Source of the DNA: Chloroflexota bacterium
GTDB lineage: Bacteria > Chloroflexota > UBA6077 > SHYK01
Assembly: GCA_034666705.1 (NCBI GenBank)
Contig: JAXDLH010000288.1
Location: 7,432 to 71,431, forward strand
DNA: 64,000 nucleotides
Direction: 5' to 3'
The stretch's first letter is position 1; every line of letters starts with the position of its first letter. The notes below the pieces were generated by a model. The model worked only from the letters and a program-made list of their open reading frames with translations, was not told the DNA's origin and searched no databases. The translations under genes and the position numbers were made by a program. Shown in pieces: positions 12,230 through 38,874 of the stretch.

Positions 12230-12335
12230 TGCGTACGCCATTCCTATTGAGCGTCTTGCAGGAGCAATGGCCGTGCAGGTCGATGCCCCTGGAGGGCAAC
12301 ACCGCATCAGCGATCGGCGCGCGTCAGCGTTTGGG

Positions 12336-12416
12336 TGCCGAGGGCGGGACTCGAACCCGCACGCCTTGCGGCCGCGCTTTTTAAGAGCGCTGCGTCTGCC
12401 ATTCCGCCACCCCGGC
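12336..12416 (-). tRNA. tRNA-Leu (anticodon UAA), type II with long variable arm
   Basis: The reverse complement reads GCCGGGGTGGCGGAATGGCAGACGC-A-GCGCT-CTTAAAA-AGCGC-(variable arm)-GCGGGTTCGAGTCCCGC-CCTCGGCA. The acceptor stem pairs (one G-U), the T-loop is GGTTCGAGTCC, and it closely resembles E. coli tRNA-Leu. CCA is not encoded. Confidence 0.8.
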
Positions 12417-12488
12417 ACGGGTGGTGTGCGTCGAGAAGCCCCGAGCGAGCGGTGTGATTATGCCCGAAGGGGAGACCCAGGCTCCGCG

Positions 12489-13404: not shown

Positions 13405-13725
13405 AAGGTTGCGCAGGAGGAGAGTAAGCCAGATTCTGTTCATGGCGACCATCTGTCTGTTCGATCCGTGAACCGAACTCCGCTCTGTGCGGATGCCCCG
13501 TACCCTGGCCTCGGCGAGCAGCGTCAACGGCCATGCTTCGGGTTGCAGCGGGGGGGATTACCCTTTTCACTCCCCGATCGAGGTCGAGGCCTTGGTCTCT
13601 GTGGCTCTAACCGCCGGTTACCCGGCCCCGGCTTACGCCAGGCACCCTGCTCTATGCTGTCTGGACTTTCCTCTCCGACGTGGTCGGAGCGGCCGCCCTT
13701 CCTCCCGCTTGGTGACCGACCCTTT
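13405..13725 (-). ncRNA. rnpB: RNase P RNA (bacterial type A-like)
   Basis: Reverse complement contains GGAGAGGAAAGTCCAGAC...ATAGAGCAGGGTGCCTGGCGTAAGCC...ACAGAATCTGGCTTAC. These correspond to the conserved GGAAAGTCCGGGC, AGGGCAGGGTGCC.GGTAACGCC and ACAGAA.CCGGCTTA blocks, and the P4 helix co-varies (GTCCAGA/TCTGGCT). The ends are approximate and were placed by P1 pairing (GCGGGAGGA/TCCTCCTGC). Confidence 0.7.
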
Positions 13726-29643: not shown

Positions 29644-30006
29644 TTACCTCCTGCCTCTCGGCTGTCGCTGGCGTGTGGGACGAACGGGAGCGGGCTCTGG
29701 CACTGCCGCGCCGGCGACCTGCCGCTCGAGGGCGGCAATCCGCGCCTCCAGGGCGCTAGCGGATTCCACCTCGTCCATTGCGGTGGTACTGAGAAAGTTG
29801 TCGCGTTTCCACCAATCGAGTCCGATCTCCTGCGCTTTGTCGATTGAGCATACGAGCAGACGGATGCGGACGGTGAGCAGCTCGACGTTGGCCAGCGAGA
29901 CCCGGATGTCACCAGCCACGACCAACCCCTTGTCCAGGACGCGGTCAAGAATATCGACGAGGCTCGTCGCGGCAGGTTGATCGCTGCGGCGGGGCTCCAT
30001 CATCAC
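29644..30006 (-). CDS. gvpJ: gas vesicle protein GvpJ (GvpA family)
   Basis: [52 protein letters not shown] matches GvpJ. Confidence 0.8.
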
Positions 30007-30659
30007 AGCAGTTGTCCAAGCGGCCCCAGGTCGACGTTTAGATCCGCGTCAGTCAGGCCGAACTGATCGCGAATCTCGGCGAGTTTCTCCTCAAGCTGCA
30101 TGAGCGCCAGCCCCATCTGTTCTATCTGGGCGTCGGAGAGGCCGGTTCCCTCCATGCGGCGGAGCGCCTGGTGCTCCAGCACCTGACGCAGCAGCTCCAC
30201 GAGCGTCAAGACCAGGCGCGCGAGGCTCGACTCAGGTCGCTCTCCTTCCGGGATCACCACCGGTGCGACCCGCCGTGCCGGCCGGCCGCTCGCAGGGTCC
30301 CCAACGGTTGAAGGCGCGCCGAGGATCTCCCCTGGCTTGACCCTTGCAGATGGCCTCGCGCCCGGTCGCGCCAGGTGCGCTGCGAGCATATCCCCATGTC
30401 GCGGACGCACCGGAGATCGCGGCGTCATTGCGTCACGGCTCCCACCGTCCTCCTCCATCGCTCGCCGCATCGTTTCGACGGACGAGACCACAAGGTTCAG
30501 GCCAAGGTACACGAGATCGACACCCCCGAGTGAGACGACGGCCTGACCGGCGAGCACTGCACCGTTGTCGAGCAGGCCATTGACGGCGTCGACGAGCGCG
30601 ATCCGCTCGGCGAGGGCCCCCTCAAGCTGCGCCACGTTGGCCCTCCACCTTGCGGACAA
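30003..30659 (-). CDS. gvpK: GvpA/J-family N-terminal domain fused through a disordered linker to a GvpK domain
   Basis: The N-terminal ~65 aa are GvpA/J/S-like (LVDAVNGLLDNGAVLAGQAVVSLGGVDLVYLGLNLVVSSVE). The C-terminal ~80 aa match GvpK (LARLVLTLVELLRQVLEHQALRRMEGTGLSDAQIEQMGLALMQLEEKL...[13 protein letters not shown]). It is a single uninterrupted 218-codon ORF. Confidence 0.7.
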   Translation of the reverse strand: MSARWRANVAQLEGALAERIALVDAVNGLLDNGAVLAGQAVVSLGGVDLVYLGLNLVVSSVETMRRAMEEDGGSRDAMTPRSPVRPRHGDMLAAHLARPGARPSARVKPGEILGAPSTVGDPASGRPARRVAPVVIPEGERPESSLARLVLTLVELLRQVLEHQALRRMEGTGLSDAQIEQMGLALMQLEEKLAEIRDQFGLTDADLNVDLGPLGQLL

Positions 30660-31512
30660 ACGAATAGGGCGGCCAAGGACCGCTCAACTCCAGGTCGAGC
30701 CCGGCCGTCTGCGCTCGATCCAGGAGGCCGGCGAACACGGCGCCGAATGCCTCACGATGGTCTCGATCCACGAGGAACGCGAGTTTTGCGACGAGTGGAT
30801 GCGGATCGGGAGTCTCTGATACTACGGCATCCTGTTGCACGTCAACGCTCGCCGCGCCCAATTCCCGGGCCGCGCCGCTGAGCTCCTCGTCGAGGAAGCC
30901 GGATGCCTCAGTGGCGAGCAGCGACTCGCGACGTCGCCGCAGCAGATAGGCCTTGCCGGGCGCGCTGCGCTCGATCTCCACGGCCAGCTCGCGCAGAACC
31001 GCGCTGTTTTGTTCCGCAGCTCGCCACACGCGCGCCGGATCCGCATACGCCTTCAGCCCCCATTCCTCCCGGTCGGCGACCTTTTCAAGCAATGCGTGCA
31101 GCTCACTCTCCTGGCCTTCCAGCATGGCGCGCACTCCCTCCGGGCTGCGATAGACCGCCCCGAAGCCCAGCGGCACGATGGGTCCCGCCTGCTCGAACAG
31201 CGTGCGCACCACCGCCTCGTGGCGTACCGCGTATTCAGCAAGCTTCGGCAGATCGGCCGTCAGTGCGTTCAACGGCTCTTCGTCGAAGACGGCGGCAGGC
31301 ACAAGACTGGTCGCTGCGATCAGGCCAGCATGGTTGATGCCAGTGACAGAGGCAAAGGGCACAATACCGAGCACATTACGGCCCGCCAGCACATCCTTCG
31401 AGCTAGGGCCGGCCAGAAGCACGCCGTACACGTACAGCAGCTCGTCGCGTTTCGTGGCCGCAGATCGAGCGGCGCTCTGGCGCGGGGTGCCGGCTTCCAT
31501 GTGACCTGCCAT
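30622..31512 (-). CDS. gvpL: gas vesicle protein GvpL/GvpF family
   Basis: The LYVYGVL start motif and the SGPWPPYSF C-terminal motif are typical of GvpF/L. Confidence 0.8.
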   Translation of the reverse strand: MAGHMEAGTPRQSAARSAATKRDELLYVYGVLLAGPSSKDVLAGRNVLGIVPFASVTGINHAGLIAATSLVPAAVFDEEPLNALTADLPKLAEYAVRHEAVVRTLFEQAGPIVPLGFGAVYRSPEGVRAMLEGQESELHALLEKVADREEWGLKAYADPARVWRAAEQNSAVLRELAVEIERSAPGKAYLLRRRRESLLATEASGFLDEELSGAARELGAASVDVQQDAVVSETPDPHPLVAKLAFLVDRDHREAFGAVFAGLLDRAQTAGLDLELSGPWPPYSFVRKVEGQRGAA

Positions 31513-31520
31513 TGGGGGAT

Positions 31521-31772
31521 TCAGCGCTGCGCTTGCCGCTGTCGAAAGGCACGCGCGGCACGGAGCCGCGCCATGATCTCAGCTTCGGCTTCGGTGTATT
31601 CGTCCTCGGTGATCTCGCCATCGTCGAGTCGGACTTGCAGCAGGAGCAGGTCTTCGCGAATACGCTCCTCGTCGTACAGCTCACGGTCGGCCATATCGCC
31701 GATGGTATTGAAGACGAATTTGACGCCGGCGACTGGCGCGGTCAGTGGTGCCAACAGCAGCTTGAGCAACAT
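31521..31772 (-). CDS. gvpG: gas vesicle protein GvpG
   Basis: 83 aa with the GvpG pattern (LLL.PL..P...V.....E.YDEERIREDLLLLQVRLDDGEITEDEY). Confidence 0.7.
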   Translation of the reverse strand: MLLKLLLAPLTAPVAGVKFVFNTIGDMADRELYDEERIREDLLLLQVRLDDGEITEDEYTEAEAEIMARLRAARAFRQRQAQR

Positions 31773-32599
31773 CAGGACATGGCCCCGGCGCGCTCGAGCT
31801 TGAGCCGAATGTTCACGAAATTGTAAGGTGGCCAGGGGCCGGTGTACTGAAATCGCAGCTTGCCCTCATATCGTTGCGCGATCTCCTGTACCTTCTGGTC
31901 GAACTCAGTCGATTTATCCCGCTCGACGAGGAAGGCGGCATTCAGGATCATCTTGTCGCCGATTGGCTTGTTGTGCCGCGAGGCCGTCGCACAATCGCGG
32001 AGGTGGTCGTAGACCTCTCGCACGTACGTGTCAGACCGTTCCGCGAGGGCCTGCTCGACGAGCCGGCCAAGCTGCATCCGGGCAAAATAGGTTGACGCGA
32101 GCCGATTCGAGAGGATCTCTTCCTTCAGCCGGCGGATGTCTTCGCTCTCCTGCTCGACTTCCTTCAGCACGGTTTCAGGGTCCCAGTTGACCTTTAGACC
32201 AAACTCGATCTTATCCTTGAGTTTGCGCAATACGTCCTGAAGCGCTTCAGACGTGTCCTTCAAGAACTCCACAACGTCATCTTCCGTGCGGAAAACGGTG
32301 CCGAAGCTCATCGGGATGACCGTGAACTCCTTCATTACGGTTTCAATGGCATGCTCATGGGCGAGCGCGTTCTCGCGTGTGGGGTCGTACATCACGACCG
32401 GAGTGTCCGATACCACTGCGGCAAGTGCGCCACGGTGAATCGTATAAAGCTCGTCGTTTCGGCCGCCGATCCCGAGCGGGCCAAAGCCCTGCGGGGCGTC
32501 GCACTCGATGATGCAGTACACGTACTTGCCCTCATCGGCCACCCGTGGCGATCCCGAATCTTCCGTGACGACGGCCGCGGCACGCTCATCCAGATTCAT
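31772..32599 (-). CDS. gvpF: gas vesicle protein GvpF
   Basis: KYVYCII start motif and the C-terminal TGPWPPYNF; GvpF/L fold family. Confidence 0.85.
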   Translation of the reverse strand: MNLDERAAAVVTEDSGSPRVADEGKYVYCIIECDAPQGFGPLGIGGRNDELYTIHRGALAAVVSDTPVVMYDPTRENALAHEHAIETVMKEFTVIPMSFGTVFRTEDDVVEFLKDTSEALQDVLRKLKDKIEFGLKVNWDPETVLKEVEQESEDIRRLKEEILSNRLASTYFARMQLGRLVEQALAERSDTYVREVYDHLRDCATASRHNKPIGDKMILNAAFLVERDKSTEFDQKVQEIAQRYEGKLRFQYTGPWPPYNFVNIRLKLERAGAMS

Positions 32600-32740
32600 C
32601 TCTTGCCCTCACGAGGAATTCGCGGCTGCGGTCCCCGGGCGGCAGCCCCAGCCATGATACCGGTTGCATATCAACTCGTGGAAGATATGAAAAGCACGGG
32701 CACCGCAAATCGGACGGTCCAAACCATGTACCAGTGGCAA

Positions 32741-32769
32741 TTGATTTTCATTCGTACGTGGCGTATACT
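32741..32769 (+). promoter_or_regulatory. sigma70-like promoter TTGATT-17 nt-TATACT for the aro leader
   Basis: -35 TTGATT (32741-32746), a 17-nt spacer, and -10 TATACT (32764-32769), inside an AT-rich divergent intergenic region. Confidence 0.5.
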
Positions 32770-32800
32770 GCGCCTATTCTGTGCAGGAAGGTCAACTGGC

Positions 32801-32878
32801 GTGAGCCTCGACCAGCACGCATTCGCCTACGCGTACTACTTTAGCTGGCGGCACGGAGGGATGCCGGCGGTCAGGTAG
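32801..32878 (+). CDS. aromatic-rich leader peptide (MSLDQHAFAYAYYFSWRHGGMPAVR)
   Basis: 25-codon ORF starting at a GTG that has AGGAAGG 9 nt upstream. Of codons 8-16, six are Phe/Tyr/Trp (F-A-Y-A-Y-Y-F-S-W). It sits between the promoter and a terminator hairpin upstream of DAHP synthase. Confidence 0.55.
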   Translation: MSLDQHAFAYAYYFSWRHGGMPAVR

Positions 32879-32910
32879 CGCTGATCTTCCACAACCCAGG
32901 TGCCGCGGAA

Positions 32911-32936
32911 GCAGAGGATGAGTCCTCTGCTTTTTT
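32911..32936 (+). terminator. attenuator-type intrinsic terminator (GCAGAGGA-tgag-TCCTCTGC followed by TTTTTT)
   Basis: 8-bp GC-rich stem, a 4-nt loop and a U6 tract, 45 nt upstream of the DAHP synthase start. Confidence 0.6.
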
Positions 32937-32980
32937 GTTGCCCATTGAGGAACGAGATTACAACACATCAGGAGGGACGC

Positions 32981-34024
32981 GTGATCATCGTGATGAAGCC
33001 AACCGCCACCCAGAGCGACATCGACCACATCCTCGATCGATTGCATCAGGACGGTTGGGACGGAGAGGTCTCACATGGGACCGAGCGTACCGTGATTGGC
33101 GTCATCGGCACCGGCTTCCCGCCCGACTACCAGGATCACTTCGAGGTGATGGCGGGCGTCGAGTCGGCCACGCGGATCTCCAAGCCGTACAAGCTCGCCA
33201 GCCGCGACTTCAAACCAATCGACACGGTGATTGACGTCAACGGGATCAAGGTCGGCGGCGGCAGCGACTTCGTGGTGATGGCCGGGCCCTGCTCGGTCGA
33301 GGGGCGCGAGCAGCTTATGACGACGGCGAATGCCGTCCAGGAGCATGGAGCCTGCATGCTGCGCGGTGGCGCCTATAAGCCACGCACGTCGCCCTATAGC
33401 TTCCAGGGGATGGGCGAATCCGGACTGAACCTCCTCTCGGAAGCGCGCGACAAGACTGGCCTGCCCGTGATCACTGAGGTAATGGAGCCAGGCGACGTCG
33501 ATCTGGTCGAGAGCTTCAGCGACGTGCTGCAGATCGGCACGCGCAATATGCAGAACTTCCCGCTGTTGAAGCGCGCGGGCCGGTCGAGCAAGCCGGTCAT
33601 GCTCAAGCGTGGCATGTCGGCCACGATTGAAGAGTGGCTCATGGCCGCGGAGTACGTCCTTTCCGAAGGGAACAAGAACGTCATGCTCTGTGAGCGTGGC
33701 ATCCGGACCTTCGAGCCGATGCTGCGCAACACGCTCGATCTCGCCGTCGTGCCGATGCTACGCCGCTTGACGCACTTGCCGATCATCGTCGATCCGAGCC
33801 ACGGCACCGGCAAATGGTACCTGGTGAAACCAATGGCGCTCGCGGCGGCCGCGTGCGGCGCCGACGGCATCATCGTCGAGGTCCATCCCGATCCGGACAA
33901 TGCCTGGTCTGACGGTCCGCAGGCACTCACGCCAGCCAACTTCGCCGACATGATGCACTCGCTCGACGCCGTGGTCACCGCGACGGGCCGCCGCATGTGG
34001 TCGGCCGCAACGGCAACGGTCTAG
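32981..34024 (+). CDS. aroG: 3-deoxy-7-phosphoheptulonate (DAHP) synthase, type I-beta with N-terminal ferredoxin-like regulatory domain
   Basis: Strong resemblance to the Thermotoga-type DAHP synthase (IIVMKP...ERTVIGVIG...KPYKLASRDFKPIDTVIDVNGIKVGGG...IAGPCSVEGREQL...GADGIIVEVHPDPD). GTG start with GGAGGGA upstream. Confidence 0.85.
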   Translation: MIIVMKPTATQSDIDHILDRLHQDGWDGEVSHGTERTVIGVIGTGFPPDYQDHFEVMAGVESATRISKPYKLASRDFKPIDTVIDVNGIKVGGGSDFVVMAGPCSVEGREQLMTTANAVQEHGACMLRGGAYKPRTSPYSFQGMGESGLNLLSEARDKTGLPVITEVMEPGDVDLVESFSDVLQIGTRNMQNFPLLKRAGRSSKPVMLKRGMSATIEEWLMAAEYVLSEGNKNVMLCERGIRTFEPMLRNTLDLAVVPMLRRLTHLPIIVDPSHGTGKWYLVKPMALAAAACGADGIIVEVHPDPDNAWSDGPQALTPANFADMMHSLDAVVTATGRRMWSAATATV

Positions 34025-34174
34025 GCGGATGGCACGGGCACTCGCACCCCGGGCCCCAACCCTCGAGGCCCGTCGTGGGCACTGGCTGTGGGGTAGAGTG
34101 CTCGTGTGGGGCGACGGGTCGACGTCGCCCGTCGCTGGCTTCGGGGTCGACCCCGAGCGCCGGTCGCTGGGCTG

Positions 34175-35032
34175 ATGCCGCGCCTTGCCTACGTGATCGG
34201 GCACCCGATCCGTCACTCGCTGTCGCCGGTGATGCACAATGCCGCCTTCGCGGCGTGTGCCATCGACGGCGAGTACCGGGCAATAGACCTCATGCCGGAA
34301 CAGGTCGCTGACTGGCTGACGGAGCTCAGGGGGTCGAACGCCTACGGCTGCAACGTCACAGTGCCGCATAAGGAGATGGTGGCGCGCCTCGTCGACGACG
34401 TAGCCGGGGACGCGGTACTTGCCGGCGCTGTGAACACGGTGTGCCGCCACCCCACGGATTCGCGGCGGCTCGTCGGTATCAACACAGATACCATCGGGTT
34501 TCGCCGATCGCTCGCGGAAGAGGGCGGGATCTCGTGCCAGGGCCAGCACGTCGTGCTGCTCGGCGCGGGCGGGGCCGCGCGGGCGCTCGCCGTGGTGGCG
34601 CTGCAAGACGGTGCCGCGGAGCTCGTCGTCGTAAACCGCACGGAGGCAAGGGCCGAAGTGCTCCTCGCATCACTGAATGCGCTTGTTGGGCCGTGCCGAA
34701 CCCGAGCGGTGGCCCTGGGCGACCCAACGCTGGAGGCGGAGCTTGCGAGCGCGACGCTCGTCGTCAACGCGACGTCGGTGGGACTCGGCTCGACCGAGTT
34801 GCCTGCCGATCCAGCATCGGTCTCAACGGGCTGTATGGTAATGGACATTATCTATAACCCGCGCGCCACCGCTTTCCTCATCGCGGCAGCGCGTGCCGGC
34901 GCCCATACCGTCGGTGGCCTGGGCATGCTGGTCCATCAGGCGGGGGCCGCCTTCGAACAGTGGACCGGTGTCCGGCCGCCCGTCGAGGTGATGCGCGCCG
35001 CCGCCGAGCAGGCGCTTAGCATCCCCGCCTGA
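34175..35032 (+). CDS. aroE: shikimate dehydrogenase
   Basis: YVIGHPIRHSLSPVMHNAAF...NVTVPHK...GAGGAARA match AroE. ATG at 34175; the track ORF starts at 34106. Confidence 0.85.
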   Translation: MPRLAYVIGHPIRHSLSPVMHNAAFAACAIDGEYRAIDLMPEQVADWLTELRGSNAYGCNVTVPHKEMVARLVDDVAGDAVLAGAVNTVCRHPTDSRRLVGINTDTIGFRRSLAEEGGISCQGQHVVLLGAGGAARALAVVALQDGAAELVVVNRTEARAEVLLASLNALVGPCRTRAVALGDPTLEAELASATLVVNATSVGLGSTELPADPASVSTGCMVMDIIYNPRATAFLIAAARAGAHTVGGLGMLVHQAGAAFEQWTGVRPPVEVMRAAAEQALSIPA

Positions 35033-35062: not shown

Positions 35063-36694
35063 GTGATGAACGCTCCAGAGGTCGCAATAGCCGACGTCGG
35101 CCGAATATTTCTGGTCGGCCTGAGCGGCAGCGGTAAGAGCACCCTCGGGGTGCTCCTCGCCGAGCGCCTGGGCCTTCCGTTCATCGACACCGACGCGGCG
35201 ATCGAGCGCACGGAGGGAGCATCGGTAGCCAACATCTTCGCGACACGAGGCGAGGCGGCGTTTCGCGCGCTCGAGCGCGACGCCGTGCTCGCCTCGTGCC
35301 GCGGGACTAGCAGCGTCGTGGCCACAGGTGGCGGTGCGGTCTTGAGCGACGAGGTCCGCGACGCCATGCTGCATACCGGACGCGTGATCTGGCTTGACGC
35401 ACCGGTCGAGGTACTGGCGGGGCGCCTCGCGGGGATGACTGATCGACCGCTTCTCGCGGACGATGTGTATTCGCGGCTCGTCGCGCTGGCGGAGCAGCGA
35501 GCATCGCTCTACGCCGCGGCCCACCTCCGGGTGGACGCTGCGGTCCACCCGGAGATCGTGATGAGCACCATTCTGCGCGCCCTCGACCGGCTTCCCGACC
35601 TGAATCCAGTCTGGGTCCAGACGCCGAGTCAAACGTACCCGGTTTACGTCGGGAGCGGGGTGCTGGCGTGCGCCGGGGCCCTGCTGGGGGCGCACGGGCT
35701 CGACGCTCCGCTGCGCATCATCGCGGACGAGCGTGTGGCAGAACTGCACGGCGCGGCGGTGCGCGAGGCGCTCGCCGGCTTCGAAACGAGTTGGTATCTC
35801 GTGCCAGCCGGCGAAGAGCACAAGTCAGTCGCGCAGGCCGTGGAGCTCTATGGTCGTCTGCTGGCTGATCGCCCCGAGCGGCGCGACGTCATTGTGGCAC
35901 TGGGCGGTGGAGTGATCGGCGACCTGGCGGGCTTCATCGCCGCGACCTTGCTGCGCGGCATGCGCTTCATACAAATCCCCACGACGCTCCTTTCACAGGT
36001 CGACTCTAGCGTCGGCGGCAAGGTTGGCGTCGACCACCCCAGCGGCAAGAACCTGATCGGCGCGTTCCACCATCCCAATCTCGTCCTGGCGGACGTAGCC
36101 GTGCTCCGGACGCTGCCACCGCGCGAAGTCGCCGCCGGGTGGGCGGAGGTCGTGAAGATTGCGGTGATCCAGGATCGAGTGCTCTTCGACGATCTCGAGG
36201 CCCACGTCGACGAGATGCGGGTGCTCGAGCCGGATATCACGACCCGCGCCATTCGCCGCGACGTCGAGCTCAAGGCACGGATCGTGGACCAGGATGAACA
36301 TGATCTCTTGGGCCTGCGCGCTATCTTGAACTATGGGCACACTCTCGGCCACGCGATCGAGGCTGCCACAGGCTACGCAGCGTATCGGCACGGTGAGGGC
36401 GTGGCGATCGGTATGGCCGGCGCGGCGCACATCGCCGAGGCGATGGAGCTGCATCCGGCCGCCGACGCGCAACGGCAACGAGCGGTCCTGGAGCGCCTGG
36501 GATTACCGCAGCACGTTGAGGGCGCCACGCGCGAGATGCTGCGTGCCGCGATGGGTCTCGACAAGAAGCGCGAGGGCGGCCGCCAGTTGTGGGTCCTGCC
36601 GACGGGGATCGGCAGTGTGTGCACGTCGAAAGACGTACCCGAGCAGATCGTCGACGAGGCGATCGCGTTGATTACGCGGTCCAGTCACCCATGA
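35063..36694 (+). CDS. aroB: bifunctional shikimate kinase / 3-dehydroquinate synthase (AroK-AroB fusion)
   Basis: N-terminal P-loop shikimate kinase (LVGLSGSGKSTLG...FIDTD) fused to a full AroB domain (VIVALGGGVIGDLAGF...GGKVGVDHP...GHAIE). Confidence 0.8.
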   Translation: MMNAPEVAIADVGRIFLVGLSGSGKSTLGVLLAERLGLPFIDTDAAIERTEGASVANIFATRGEAAFRALERDAVLASCRGTSSVVATGGGAVLSDEVRDAMLHTGRVIWLDAPVEVLAGRLAGMTDRPLLADDVYSRLVALAEQRASLYAAAHLRVDAAVHPEIVMSTILRALDRLPDLNPVWVQTPSQTYPVYVGSGVLACAGALLGAHGLDAPLRIIADERVAELHGAAVREALAGFETSWYLVPAGEEHKSVAQAVELYGRLLADRPERRDVIVALGGGVIGDLAGFIAATLLRGMRFIQIPTTLLSQVDSSVGGKVGVDHPSGKNLIGAFHHPNLVLADVAVLRTLPPREVAAGWAEVVKIAVIQDRVLFDDLEAHVDEMRVLEPDITTRAIRRDVELKARIVDQDEHDLLGLRAILNYGHTLGHAIEAATGYAAYRHGEGVAIGMAGAAHIAEAMELHPAADAQRQRAVLERLGLPQHVEGATREMLRAAMGLDKKREGGRQLWVLPTGIGSVCTSKDVPEQIVDEAIALITRSSHP

Positions 36695-37149
36695 CCACGA
36701 TCCTGGTCCTCCATGGGCCGAACCTGAGCATCCTCGGCCGCAGGCAGCCGGAGATCTACGGCACCACGACGCTCGAGACAATCGACGAGGCGCTGCGCAG
36801 TCGTGCCTCAGCCTGGGGCTGGGAGATCATCGCCGTCCAATCAAACCATGAGGGCGCATTGATCGACACGATCGAGAGCCACTACGAGCGTATCGAAGGC
36901 GTGCTCATCAACCCGGGCGCCCTGACCCACTACGGCCTGTCGCTGCGTGACGCACTCGCGGCGCTGACGGTGCCCATCGTCGAGGTACACCTCTCCAACA
37001 TCCACGCGCGCGCCGAGGAGTGGCGTCACCACTCCATCACCGGCGAAGTCGCCAAAGGGATCGTGTCAGGCTTCGGTTGGCGCTCCTACCTGCTCGGGCT
37101 CGACGCGCTCCGCGGCATCATCGACCCGGGGGCTAGCCCGCCCGCGTGA
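36691..37149 (+). CDS. aroQ: type II 3-dehydroquinate dehydratase
   Basis: ILVLHGPNLSILGRRQPEIYG...INPGALTHY...EVHLSNIHARE match AroQ. The ATG overlaps the aroB stop (ATGA). Confidence 0.9.
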   Translation: MTTILVLHGPNLSILGRRQPEIYGTTTLETIDEALRSRASAWGWEIIAVQSNHEGALIDTIESHYERIEGVLINPGALTHYGLSLRDALAALTVPIVEVHLSNIHARAEEWRHHSITGEVAKGIVSGFGWRSYLLGLDALRGIIDPGASPPA

Positions 37150-38787
37150 GCGGCGCCGCGGTCGTGGCCGCTCTGTCGCTGGCGCTTCATCCGAAGCCTC
37201 GACCGGCTCGCTCGACTGAACCTCCGCTTCCTGAGCCTCGCCCATCGGAAGCGCGAGTGGAGCATCGTGGCCGTTTGTGGTTATGAGCTCATCGTCGGAG
37301 CTGCTTGGGAGCTCTTCCGTTGCGGAGCTCTCTTCTGTCACGGCGCTCACATCGGTTCGCGCAGTGCCCCGGCCTCGTGACCGGCGACGCGGCCTCGGTC
37401 GCTCCGGCGGCGCCTCCGCGCTCGTGCCACTCTCGCCGGCAATTTCCGGCGACGATTCGATCTCGACATCATTGGCAGCGACTGGCTCGATCCCATTGGT
37501 CCCGGGCGGCTCTTCGAGCGCCCGCATGACGAGGGGGTGCCTGCGATTCAACCGGAAGATGTTGATGTCGCGGTACTCGCCGGTGATTCGATCGAGAATG
37601 GTCCGCGTGTCGGTGAGGAACATGCCGTCCTGGATCGCTTGATCGACGAGGTCGCTCAACTCGTTGAGCGTCATCGGGACGAGGCGAGACTCTGCGGCTC
37701 GATTCACGATGTAGTTGAACGACATGAATGGGCTGCCCTGCTCCAGCAGATCGACGAACCGCACGAGCTTCGTGAGACGTTCCTCGTCTACGGGATCGAG
37801 CTTGACCGTGGACCGCTGGACGACGGGATTCCGCAATGGCGGAGGAGGCGGGGTTTCTCCAATCCGCTGCACGGCCTCCTCGGCCTCGCGCTCAACCTCT
37901 TGCGGCGTCTCGACTGCGAGGCCGGTGTCGATCTCCTCGCCCGGCATGTACACGCGATCCGTGAGGCCAACAGTTTGGGTCTTCACGATCCCGCGCCGCT
38001 CGGCCTCCTTCATAAAGTCCTTGAACTTCGAGTAGCCATAGGCCTGCTCGTCGAAGCTGCCAAGGCGGCTGGCCAGGAGCAGCTTGACCTGCGCGAACAC
38101 GTTGGGCCGCCGCTTCTCGCGTACGTACTTCACGACCTCGCCGAGGACCTTGAACGCCTCGTCAACGGCGACGAGAGGTGCGGCCACGGGAGCTGGCGCC
38201 GGTGTGGGTGCATGAGGCGGCGCCGTGCTGGCCGCCACCAGCGGCGCCGGGCGCCGCGCAGGGGCCGGATCGACGTCCACGTCGTACGCGATGTACTGGT
38301 CGGCGCTGCTGGTGAGCATCCAACTCGTGTTCCACGAGGCGCCGATGATGACCACGCGCTTGCCGTGCGTGCGCAGGGTATTGACGAGATGGATAAAGTC
38401 GCCGTCGCCGGTGACAAAGACGAACGTTGCCACGCTGGGGTTCAGGTAGGCGAACTCCACCACGTCGACGGCGAGCTTGATGTCCACGGAATTCTTGCGG
38501 CGGGGCAGTCCGTCGGTCGTGGCATCGCCGGGCCCGACGAAGATCGTGGGGACGTAGATCGGCTCGATGCCCACGGAGTAAAGATCGTTGGGATCGCGGA
38601 GGTTGTGGCCCTCCTGCCAGTTGGCGTACGCCTTAGCGGTCACCACCCGGCCAAATCGCCCGGCCGCATCCTTGAGCGCCTGAACGTTGGGAAGCCGGTT
38701 ATCGCGGTTAAGCAGGCTGTACTTGATGTTCTCCCAGTCGATGAACATCGCGACGTCGCCGGAGGGCGACGACGAGGGAGCAGTCAA
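37066..38787 (-). CDS. NYN (LabA-like) domain plus OST-HTH/LOTUS domain protein with Arg/Ser-rich C-terminal repeats
   Basis: N-terminal NYN fold (MFIDWENIKYS...FVFVTGDGDF), a central OST-HTH-like segment, and a C-terminal acidic region with a duplicated ERPRPRRRSRGRG. The start is taken at TTG 38787, which has GGAGG 7 nt upstream. Confidence 0.6.
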   Translation of the reverse strand: MTAPSSSPSGDVAMFIDWENIKYSLLNRDNRLPNVQALKDAAGRFGRVVTAKAYANWQEGHNLRDPNDLYSVGIEPIYVPTIFVGPGDATTDGLPRRKNSVDIKLAVDVVEFAYLNPSVATFVFVTGDGDFIHLVNTLRTHGKRVVIIGASWNTSWMLTSSADQYIAYDVDVDPAPARRPAPLVAASTAPPHAPTPAPAPVAAPLVAVDEAFKVLGEVVKYVREKRRPNVFAQVKLLLASRLGSFDEQAYGYSKFKDFMKEAERRGIVKTQTVGLTDRVYMPGEEIDTGLAVETPQEVEREAEEAVQRIGETPPPPPLRNPVVQRSTVKLDPVDEERLTKLVRFVDLLEQGSPFMSFNYIVNRAAESRLVPMTLNELSDLVDQAIQDGMFLTDTRTILDRITGEYRDINIFRLNRRHPLVMRALEEPPGTNGIEPVAANDVEIESSPEIAGESGTSAEAPPERPRPRRRSRGRGTARTDVSAVTEESSATEELPSSSDDELITTNGHDAPLALPMGEAQEAEVQSSEPVEASDEAPATERPRPRRRSRGRASPRVDDAAERVEPEQVGAPTEA

Positions 38788-38874
38788 TATGTGCCTCCAG
38801 GAGTTTTCGACAAAAATGGGCAAGTGTCTGGCGGAGGCCGGCGCGACAGTCCGCAACCTCGGCAATCCGCTGCC

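Follow-up and report, generated by a model that had tools for sequence, protein, structure and literature searches.

The 64,000-nucleotide (nt) stretch of DNA analysed here (the window) comes from a Chloroflexota bacterium (contig JAXDLH010000288.1). Near its middle, a 3-deoxy-D-arabino-heptulosonate 7-phosphate (DAHP) synthase gene opens a shikimate pathway operon, and is preceded by a short open reading frame (ORF) rich in aromatic codons and by an intrinsic terminator. A first-pass annotation had proposed that this leader region couples the operon to the supply of charged Phe, Tyr and Trp tRNAs by ribosome-mediated attenuation, with the architecture of the pheA and trp leaders. Every feature on which it relied was confirmed at its place: the promoter, the Shine-Dalgarno (SD) sequence and GTG-started ORF of 25 codons with Phe, Tyr or Trp at six of nine consecutive positions, and the GC-rich hairpin followed by a T-run. 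We describe below the leader and its relatives, including a hairpin called P1 that adjoins the terminator, and then consider how the position of a ribosome on the ORF could be transmitted to the terminator.

The leader and its relatives in Chloroflexota

The leader of the window is composed of the following elements:

32741-32769, plus strand: sigma-70-type promoter, TTGATT (32741-32746), 17-nt spacer, TATACT (32764-32769)
32785-32791, plus strand: SD sequence of the leader ORF, AGGAAGG, 9 nt ahead of the GTG
32801-32878, plus strand: leader ORF, GTG at 32801, 25 codons, TAG at 32876-32878, translation MSLDQHAFAYAYYFSWRHGGMPAVR
32822-32848, plus strand: run of regulatory aromatic codons, F8, Y10, Y12, Y13, F14 and W16
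32848-32854, plus strand: 5′ strand of P1, GCGGCAC, inside the leader ORF, pairing with 32900-32906
32869-32886, plus strand: apical (inner) hairpin of P1, GGUCAG/CUGAUC, with UAG 32876-32878 in its loop
32900-32906, plus strand: 3′ strand of P1, GUGCCGC, with a 0-nt spacer to the terminator stem
32907-32939, plus strand: intrinsic terminator, GGAAGCAGAGGA, loop UGAG, UCCUCUGCUUUU (hairpin 32907-32934), U-run through 32936, then GUU
32786-32890, plus strand: predicted alternative long hairpin of the untranslated leader, in which 32786-32794 (SD region) pairs with 32882-32890
32970-34024, plus strand: SD sequence AGGAGGG and type I-beta DAHP synthase gene, GTG at 32981, 45 nt after the U-run

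TTGATT-17-TATACT is the only promoter-like site between positions 30000 and 40000, where a mean of 1.2 is expected by chance; the match is at chance level and means little alone. Transcription would start at about 32776-32778, leaving a 5′ untranslated region (UTR) of 24 nt that contains the SD sequence. The aromatic residues are concentrated in the segment FAYAYYFSW of the leader peptide. A nine-residue stretch with at least six aromatics occurs only this once in all six frames of the window, and Markov-1 random windows contain 0.025 such stretches each. The terminator hairpin alone has a fold energy of -16.8 kcal/mol. It was not called by a consensus terminator scan at 32907-32939 because the stem extension consumes the T-run. 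Its core in DNA form, GCAGAGG-N-CCTCTGC, occurs once in the window and in none of 100 shuffles. The long hairpin predicted for the untranslated leader (105 nt, -44.7 kcal/mol) is specific to the window; it uses sequence just past the leader stop and competes with the inner part of P1.

Relatives were collected by scans with the DAHP synthase protein, yielding 80 genome loci and 80 metagenome loci (numbered with the prefix L), the closest DAHP synthases being those of Chloroflexota metagenome-assembled genomes (MAGs), at 62-66% identity. An exact match to the protein of the window, looked up with two alternative starts, gave no record in public assemblies. The first-pass annotation had called for a search of orthologous aro leaders for small ORFs rich in Phe, Tyr and Trp codons, and this search was positive: a homologous leader precedes the DAHP synthase gene in about 58 of the 160 related loci, mostly from Chloroflexota. 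Many high-GC loci share the same layout, with a TTGACA-17-TAnnnT promoter, a short aromatic ORF and a terminator. The short ORFs of relatives contain 3-6 aromatic codons and are often leaderless; in most Chloroflexota relatives the ATG lies 10-13 nt past the -10 box (leaderless or nearly so), and the window copy differs in having an SD sequence. Three classes can be distinguished:

Short class (PA-stop): 41 distinct sequences with a near-leaderless ORF of 10-12 codons, M-x-x-[FYW]2-5-R-x-P-A-stop, for example MSHYFYFRCPA-stop
Long class: the window, L084 (MQVNFWYYFTSRHGGVPV-stop), L007, L003 and the L001 group (MRQxAYSYWFT...R-stop)
L093/L153 class: L093:992-1105 (VNPQFWFYG-stop) and L153:125-239 (MNKFWFYV-stop), in which the end of the ORF is the base of P1

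The leader nearest to that of the window is the L084 one, MQVNFWYYFTSRHGGVPV. A terminator was found in every class, and the GC-rich stem and U6 are kept even where the sequence differs. The core GCAGAGG/CCUCUGC is common to most relatives; the L001 class has a terminator entirely different in sequence, and in the L093/L153 class, which also has a different terminator sequence, the motif AGCAGAGG, which elsewhere is the terminator arm, lies unpaired inside P1. A covariance model (R1) built from the short-ORF class only, with the window excluded, matched the window over its full length at 32822-32940 on the plus strand (41.7 bits, E = 1.9e-10). It also matched L003, L084, L093, L083 and L153, and all plus-strand matches lie upstream of DAHP synthase.

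The 5′ strand of P1 lies inside the ORF or at its end in all classes. The short-class strands are CCCGGCAUGAcc (5′) and ggUCGUGCCGGG (3′), and the window has one pair swapped from C-G to G-C. When divergent members are included, 98.8% of the cells in the P1 and terminator alignment are paired, and both-sided changes occur in 10 of 17 pairs, a result equalled by 0 of 500 shuffles; this covariation is to be read with the caveat that the alignment was fitted to the model. The comparison argues that P1 and the terminator are real helices. Within the 41 short-class leaders, no variation is seen in the lower stem of P1 (CCCGGCAUG/CGUGCCGGG) or in the core of the terminator, while the inner hairpin and the loops vary freely; the median identity of the corresponding DAHP synthases is 76%.

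Codon usage in the leaders is strongly biased. Aromatic codons represent 27% of leader codons in the family versus 4.4% in the adjacent DAHP synthase genes. The rare codons are favoured, with TTT used for 53% of Phe residues in leaders versus 3% in the adjacent genes, and TAT for 35% of Tyr residues versus 8%. In 40 of 41 short leaders, the distance from the start of the last aromatic codon (usually UUU or UAU, both rare) to the 5′ strand of P1 is exactly 8 nt. The spacing is the same in the window, where the rare UUU at 32840-32842 starts 8 nt ahead of this strand.

The motif CCCGGCAUGA is kept across classes although its reading frame differs: the P1 5′-strand motif is read Pro-Ala-stop in the short class and Gly-Met-Thr in L007 and L001. 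We conclude that it is constrained as RNA. This observation bears on a TnaC-like arrest. There, free aromatic amino acids would be detected inside the exit tunnel by a nascent peptide ending in ...F-Y-F-R-x-P-A-stop, and the ribosome would halt at the stop codon. The near invariance of the C-terminal R-x-P-A-UGA in the short class is what such an arrest would lead one to expect. However, the long class, to which the window belongs, reads this RNA motif in a different frame (P-G-M-T...); the window peptide has no C-terminal motif in common with the short class, and the rare-codon bias points to tRNA sensing. As the conserved object is the RNA and not the peptide, we dismiss peptide arrest as very unlikely.

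The position of stop codons is also conserved. In 38 of the 41 short-class members the apical loop holds the stop of the frame that crosses P1, and in 0 of 41 does it hold one in either of the other two frames. In the long class, including the window (UAG 32876-32878), the stop of the leader ORF itself falls within the apical loop. In the short class (L023, L041, L053 and 35 other loci, for example L041:3474-3560) the stop of the first ORF overlaps an AUG (GC-AUGA). The second frame thus opened has 6-7 codons; in 38 of 41 members its stop, which may be UAG, UGA or UAA, falls within the apical loop of the inner hairpin. The AUGA overlap suggests termination followed by re-initiation, which would take translation to the tip of the hairpin.

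A spurious small ORF in a GC-rich intergenic region, beside an ordinary terminator or structural hairpin, would be the simplest explanation for the locus. The leader frame is indeed open from 32351, a longer stop-free stretch typical of high-GC DNA, and the promoter match is at chance level. Against a coincidence stand the uniqueness of the aromatic stretch in the window, the homology to about 58 loci, the codon bias, the covariation and the fixed 8-nt spacing. This reading, extremely improbable, is effectively refuted by the comparative data.

Taken together, the element probably represents a conserved Chloroflexota leader-peptide attenuator, which would tie control of the DAHP synthase (shikimate) operon to how much charged Phe, Tyr and Trp tRNA is available. 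Its occurrence in many Chloroflexota makes a real amino-acid-sensing switch very likely. The attenuator is not universal in the phylum, being absent from Chloroflexia MAGs with GC above 0.7 (L018, L021, L034, L078 and L112), where DAHP synthase has no leader. In these five loci the gene lies directly 3′ of a gene whose product ends in ...LFHRVP..., and in many Bacillota and Nitrospirota loci it instead follows an aminotransferase-like gene.

From ribosome position to the terminator

In the attenuator that we propose, transcription would start from the promoter and a ribosome would translate the short ORF. With ample aromatic aminoacyl-tRNA, the ribosome would cross the 5′ strand of P1 and reach the stop codon in the apical loop; P1 would then be excluded, the adjoining terminator would form and transcription would end before DAHP synthase. 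With scarce aromatic aminoacyl-tRNA, the ribosome would wait at the aromatic codons, the last of which, usually the rare UUU or UAU, is 8 nt before P1. P1 would then begin at about +12 from the P site, a position that corresponds to the edge of the ribosomal mRNA channel in ribosome footprint and helicase data, and the stalled ribosome should touch P1 without melting it. Moving one codon beyond the last aromatic codon should start the melting of P1, and a ribosome at the stop codon should have melted the whole 5′ strand. Intact P1, separated from the terminator stem by 0-4 nt or overlapping it by 1-4 nt, would lower termination, so that the operon is transcribed. This direction of the switch, with read-through for intact P1 and termination for melted P1, is deduced from physiology and geometry: since the operon makes precursors of the sensed amino acids, we infer that intact P1 must be the read-through state.

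P1 could be a non-overlapping antiterminator, a translated hairpin that suppresses the adjoining terminator without a shared strand, a tentative possibility that we rate as less likely than not. Between the maximal stems of P1 and the terminator, the distance ranges from -4 to +4 nt in the 41 members and is 0 nt in the window; when extended, the two stems share 1-4 nt in 13 of 41 members and abut in 5 more. Our favoured candidate for the effect of intact P1 is interference at the terminator stem base, either through minimal overlap or through steric exclusion, and a stalled ribosome sitting at the junction could strengthen it. In a non-overlapping antiterminator, the rigid P1 helix, attached 0-4 nt away and with the starved ribosome docked at +12, could keep the stem base out of the RNA exit channel. 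Alternatively, P1 may act on RNA polymerase as put RNAs do. In the B. subtilis trp leader, antiterminator and terminator overlap by only 4 nt, and interference at the base of the terminator stem can suffice; there, control is exerted by the TRAP protein binding GAG/UAG repeats and not by a translating ribosome. No such repeats are present in the window element.

Several results weigh against attenuation as proposed here. No mutually exclusive antiterminator could be detected by ribosome-mask folding in the window and the family. This analysis asked for the pairing partner of the terminator 5′ arm before the 3′ arm is made, with a ribosome modelled on the ORF. The paired probability of the arm in the window was 0.05-0.36 for ribosomes stalled at Y12 to W16 and 0.10 with the ribosome at the stop codon; the family means were 0.24-0.34 and 0.39, respectively. 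The terminator is present in all equilibrium folds of relatives, whichever region the ribosome masks, and folding energetics permit P1 and the terminator to coexist. In 23 of the 41 members, 1-4 unpaired nt separate P1 from the terminator, which weakens a purely steric model. Finally, the invariance of the stem sequences in the short-ORF class is not accounted for by the favoured model. In the window, likewise, the minimum-energy folds always include the terminator.

We used the E. coli leaders as controls in the identical test. The 5′ arm was paired with a probability of 0.88 with the ribosome stalled versus 0.25 at the stop codon for pheL, and of 0.71 versus 0.05 for trpL. An unrelated metagenomic leader (L146) gave 1.00 when stalled versus 0.21-0.33 at the ORF end. 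Because these controls behave canonically, the negative result for a shared-strand antiterminator in the Chloroflexota leader family is meaningful.

This comparison bears on the textbook trp/pheA attenuator, in which a segment downstream of the stalled ribosome would pair with the terminator 5′ arm (2:3 pairing) and exclude the terminator. The overall layout, with promoter, aromatic ORF, terminator and biosynthetic operon, fits this model. The window also offers a weak helix, 32881-32890/32907-32914 (8 bp with a 2-nt bulge, about -9.6 kcal/mol); a ribosome that has reached the stop codon would mask its 5′ strand. However, this helix is incompatible with the conserved P1, and the 5′ arm is mostly free under a stalled ribosome in the window and in the family, unlike in pheL, trpL and L146. 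Neither the aromatic codons nor the P1 flank pair with the arm better than shuffled sequences do. A textbook attenuator is therefore unlikely. The first-pass annotation had expected such an antiterminator, pairing the coding region with the 5′ arm of the terminator, and this part of its proposal failed; ribosome-mediated aromatic attenuation itself stands on the conserved leader peptide and terminator unit, the rare-codon bias and the covariation, without the pheA/trp fold.

Individual pairings were rejected as follows. The classical 2:3 antiterminator was ruled out by ribosome-mask folding, in which the positive controls were canonical. In the absence of a ribosome, truncated folds pair the terminator 5′ arm with the aromatic codons, and this pairing looked convincing there and in L001. 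The duplex energy (-6.6 versus -6.4 kcal/mol for shuffled sequences, z = -0.13) shows that the complementarity is purely compositional, and it would in any case be hidden by the stalled ribosome. We rejected it also because such pairing would invert the logic of the switch. An in-register extension of P1 (the P1 flank) into the 5′ arm was at shuffle level (z = -0.04), and in the long class no consistent partner of the arm was found. The 5′ UTR segment UUCUGUGC (32777-32784) is predicted to pair with the terminator arm in every ribosome state; it is not conserved in L084, and by our own estimate a 7/8 match is expected by chance. By inspection, the terminator 3′ arm could form only 4-5 bp with the SD sequence of DAHP synthase as an anti-SD.

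The invariance of the short-class stems brings in a different candidate, a trans-acting factor that would bind P1, the terminator or both and set termination, with leader translation only gating its access. It could be a protein, a ligand or, as for put RNA, RNA polymerase itself. The P1 lower stem and terminator core are constant in all 41 leaders while inner hairpin and loops vary, and no cross-pairing was found among these four invariant segments that would account for it; the invariance could instead be explained by a trans-acting factor or by an action on RNA polymerase of the put kind. The recurrence of AGCAGAGG unpaired inside P1 in L093 and L153 points the same way. On the other side, P1 lacks the conserved bulges or internal loops seen in aptamers, both helices tolerate compensatory changes in divergent classes, the terminator of the L001 class is entirely different, and no candidate factor gene is linked. 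A factor of this type is on balance quite improbable.

A post-transcriptional control of translation or RNA stability was also considered. The state of P1 would set the partners of its 3′ strand, either in a helix with post-terminator sequence (P0) or elsewhere, and these would alter how accessible the ribosome-binding site of DAHP synthase is, or how stable the read-through mRNA is; the terminator would be a constitutive damper. Pairing of the P1 3′ strand with the 24 nt after the U-run beats shuffles in part of the family (mean z = -1.0, with z below -2 in 22%), and the SD sequence of DAHP synthase is 10-30 nt after the U-run in many members. Translational attenuation by leaderless small ORFs (sORFs) is moreover established for mycobacterial Cys sORFs (bioRxiv 10.1101/834739). 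P0 is nevertheless real in a subgroup only: it is missing in about half of the members, and the weak P0 of the window lies 27 nt away from the SD sequence. In predicted folds, the SD sequence itself is left free. The conservation of a GC-rich stem and U6 in every class, despite sequence differences, also speaks against this type of control. We judge this type of control improbable. In L027, L041, L042, L012 and other loci, about 24 nt after the U-run are complementary to the P1 3′ strand. This pairing places the terminator within a longer hairpin (up to -45 kcal/mol), and the signal is significant in only about a quarter to half of the members.

The operon and its surroundings

The DAHP synthase of the window matches DAHP_synth_1 (PF00793, 3.4e-79) and DAHP_snth_FXD (PF18152, 1.9e-18), the latter an N-terminal ferredoxin-like regulatory domain. 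This type I-beta enzyme with a ferredoxin-like domain differs from AroF of C. glutamicum, which is type I-alpha. The genes that follow in the operon, identified by Pfam matches, and the gas-vesicle genes upstream are:

34106-35032, plus strand: shikimate dehydrogenase (aroE), start uncertain
35063-36694, plus strand: shikimate kinase/3-dehydroquinate synthase fusion (aroK-aroB)
36691-37149, plus strand: type II dehydroquinase (aroQ)
30003-30659, minus strand: GvpK/GvpA-like fusion
30622-31512 and 31772-32599, minus strand: GvpL/GvpF genes

The dehydroquinase start overlaps the stop of the aroK-aroB fusion (ATGA, 36691-36694), which is consistent with translational coupling within the operon. 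Downstream of the operon, a gene for an NYN-domain protein lies on the opposite strand (37066-38865). The gas-vesicle cluster (30003-32599, minus strand) is divergent from the aro leader promoter. Further away, also on the minus strand, the window contains a bacterial class A RNase P RNA (13409-13708, 132 bits) and a tRNA-Leu with anticodon UAA (12332-12417).

A GTG in the 3′ strand of P1 opens a 374-codon ORF (32900-34024) that runs through the terminator in frame with DAHP synthase. It is probably a chance ORF of high-GC DNA, as the frame is not kept among relatives. Gene callers could place a wrong start of DAHP synthase there.

Relation to known attenuators

No relevant match to the Rfam amino-acid leaders (Phe_leader, Trp_leader and others) or to the T-box was found at E <= 10 in 32000-34000, nor at the gathering threshold in the whole window, nor in the relative L041. 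The element nevertheless resembles E. coli pheL-pheA and trpL-trpE, where biosynthetic genes are likewise preceded by an ORF enriched in codons for the end products of the pathway and then by an intrinsic terminator. In pheL and trpL the regulatory codons are inside region 1 and the 2:3 antiterminator shares a strand with the terminator, whereas in the Chloroflexota leader they are just upstream of a hairpin that has no strand in common with the terminator. Among the features that define the attenuator class, four are present: an ORF with regulatory codons, a terminator, a helix placed so as to be switched by ribosome position and a matching pathway. The overlapping antiterminator is not, the overlap being at most 1-4 nt, in 13 of 41 members.

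In the mycobacterial whiB7 upstream ORF and in L146, a ribosome that reaches the ORF end opens a hairpin that has its 5′ strand there, and upstream stalling preserves it. By position, P1 is the equivalent of the whiB7 and L146 antiterminator. The difference is that in these two systems the 3′ strand of the antiterminator is itself the 5′ arm of the terminator, whereas the 3′ strand of P1 only adjoins this arm (0-4 nt, or 1-4 nt shared). L146:156-300 (metagenome contig Ga0157372_10373264) is a textbook two-hairpin aromatic attenuator in front of a type I-beta DAHP synthase, with the leader peptide MSRSNVSLGFWFGWYFYPPCKCAF-stop; the last ORF codons (GCG UUC UGA GC) pair with the terminator 5′ arm. 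Another candidate regulator was seen at L066:2200-2460, in a MAG labelled 'Mycobacterium leprae' (the label looks wrong), where a T-box-like motif (GGGTGGTACCGCG) and a terminator lie upstream of DAHP synthase. As judged by its motif, this element appears to represent tRNA-sensing control of the same gene in another lineage.

A leader peptide with a Phe-Tyr-Phe core, aroR, controls the DAHP synthase gene aroF in C. glutamicum (Neshat et al. 2014, as summarised in PMC11802643). According to this summary, read-through increases when the ribosome stalls at the Phe/Tyr codons, and the system is described as classical attenuation. The likeness to the Chloroflexota leaders includes a high-GC host, a DAHP synthase operon and the core itself, which corresponds to the ..FYF.. 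of the commonest Chloroflexota leaders. aroR differs in belonging to another phylum, and the Chloroflexota element has no detectable antiterminator. The remark of the first-pass annotation that it knew of no description for a type I-beta DAHP synthase operon in a high-GC lineage thus needs qualifying, given what PMC11802643 summarises of aroR-aroF; the element is not the first aromatic DAHP synthase leader in a high-GC lineage.

ORFs located at or near the transcript 5′ end, as in the Chloroflexota relatives, are also known from the leaderless leader peptides of Deinococcus deserti (PMC4007540) and the leaderless poly-Cys sORFs of mycobacteria (bioRxiv 10.1101/834739). The latter are described there as acting on translation by SD sequestration. 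No aromatic or DAHP synthase case is reported in the available portions of these two sources. In the literature searched, we found no description of such a leader for Chloroflexota or for a type I-beta DAHP synthase.

The element would therefore bring leader-peptide attenuation by amino acids into Chloroflexota, with control placed at the first committed step of the aromatic pathway as a whole. The size and clear definition of its family would allow curation as a new cis-regulatory RNA family, of use in annotating MAGs. Its features depart from the textbook in the lack of a shared-strand antiterminator, the stop codon at the hairpin tip, the AUGA overlap of the short class and the exact 8-nt spacing. 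With only about 110 nt, the element is a simple system in which the transmission from ribosome position to the terminator can be tested directly. If true, the P1 mode would be a form of ribosome-mediated attenuation distinct from the alternative-pairing paradigm.

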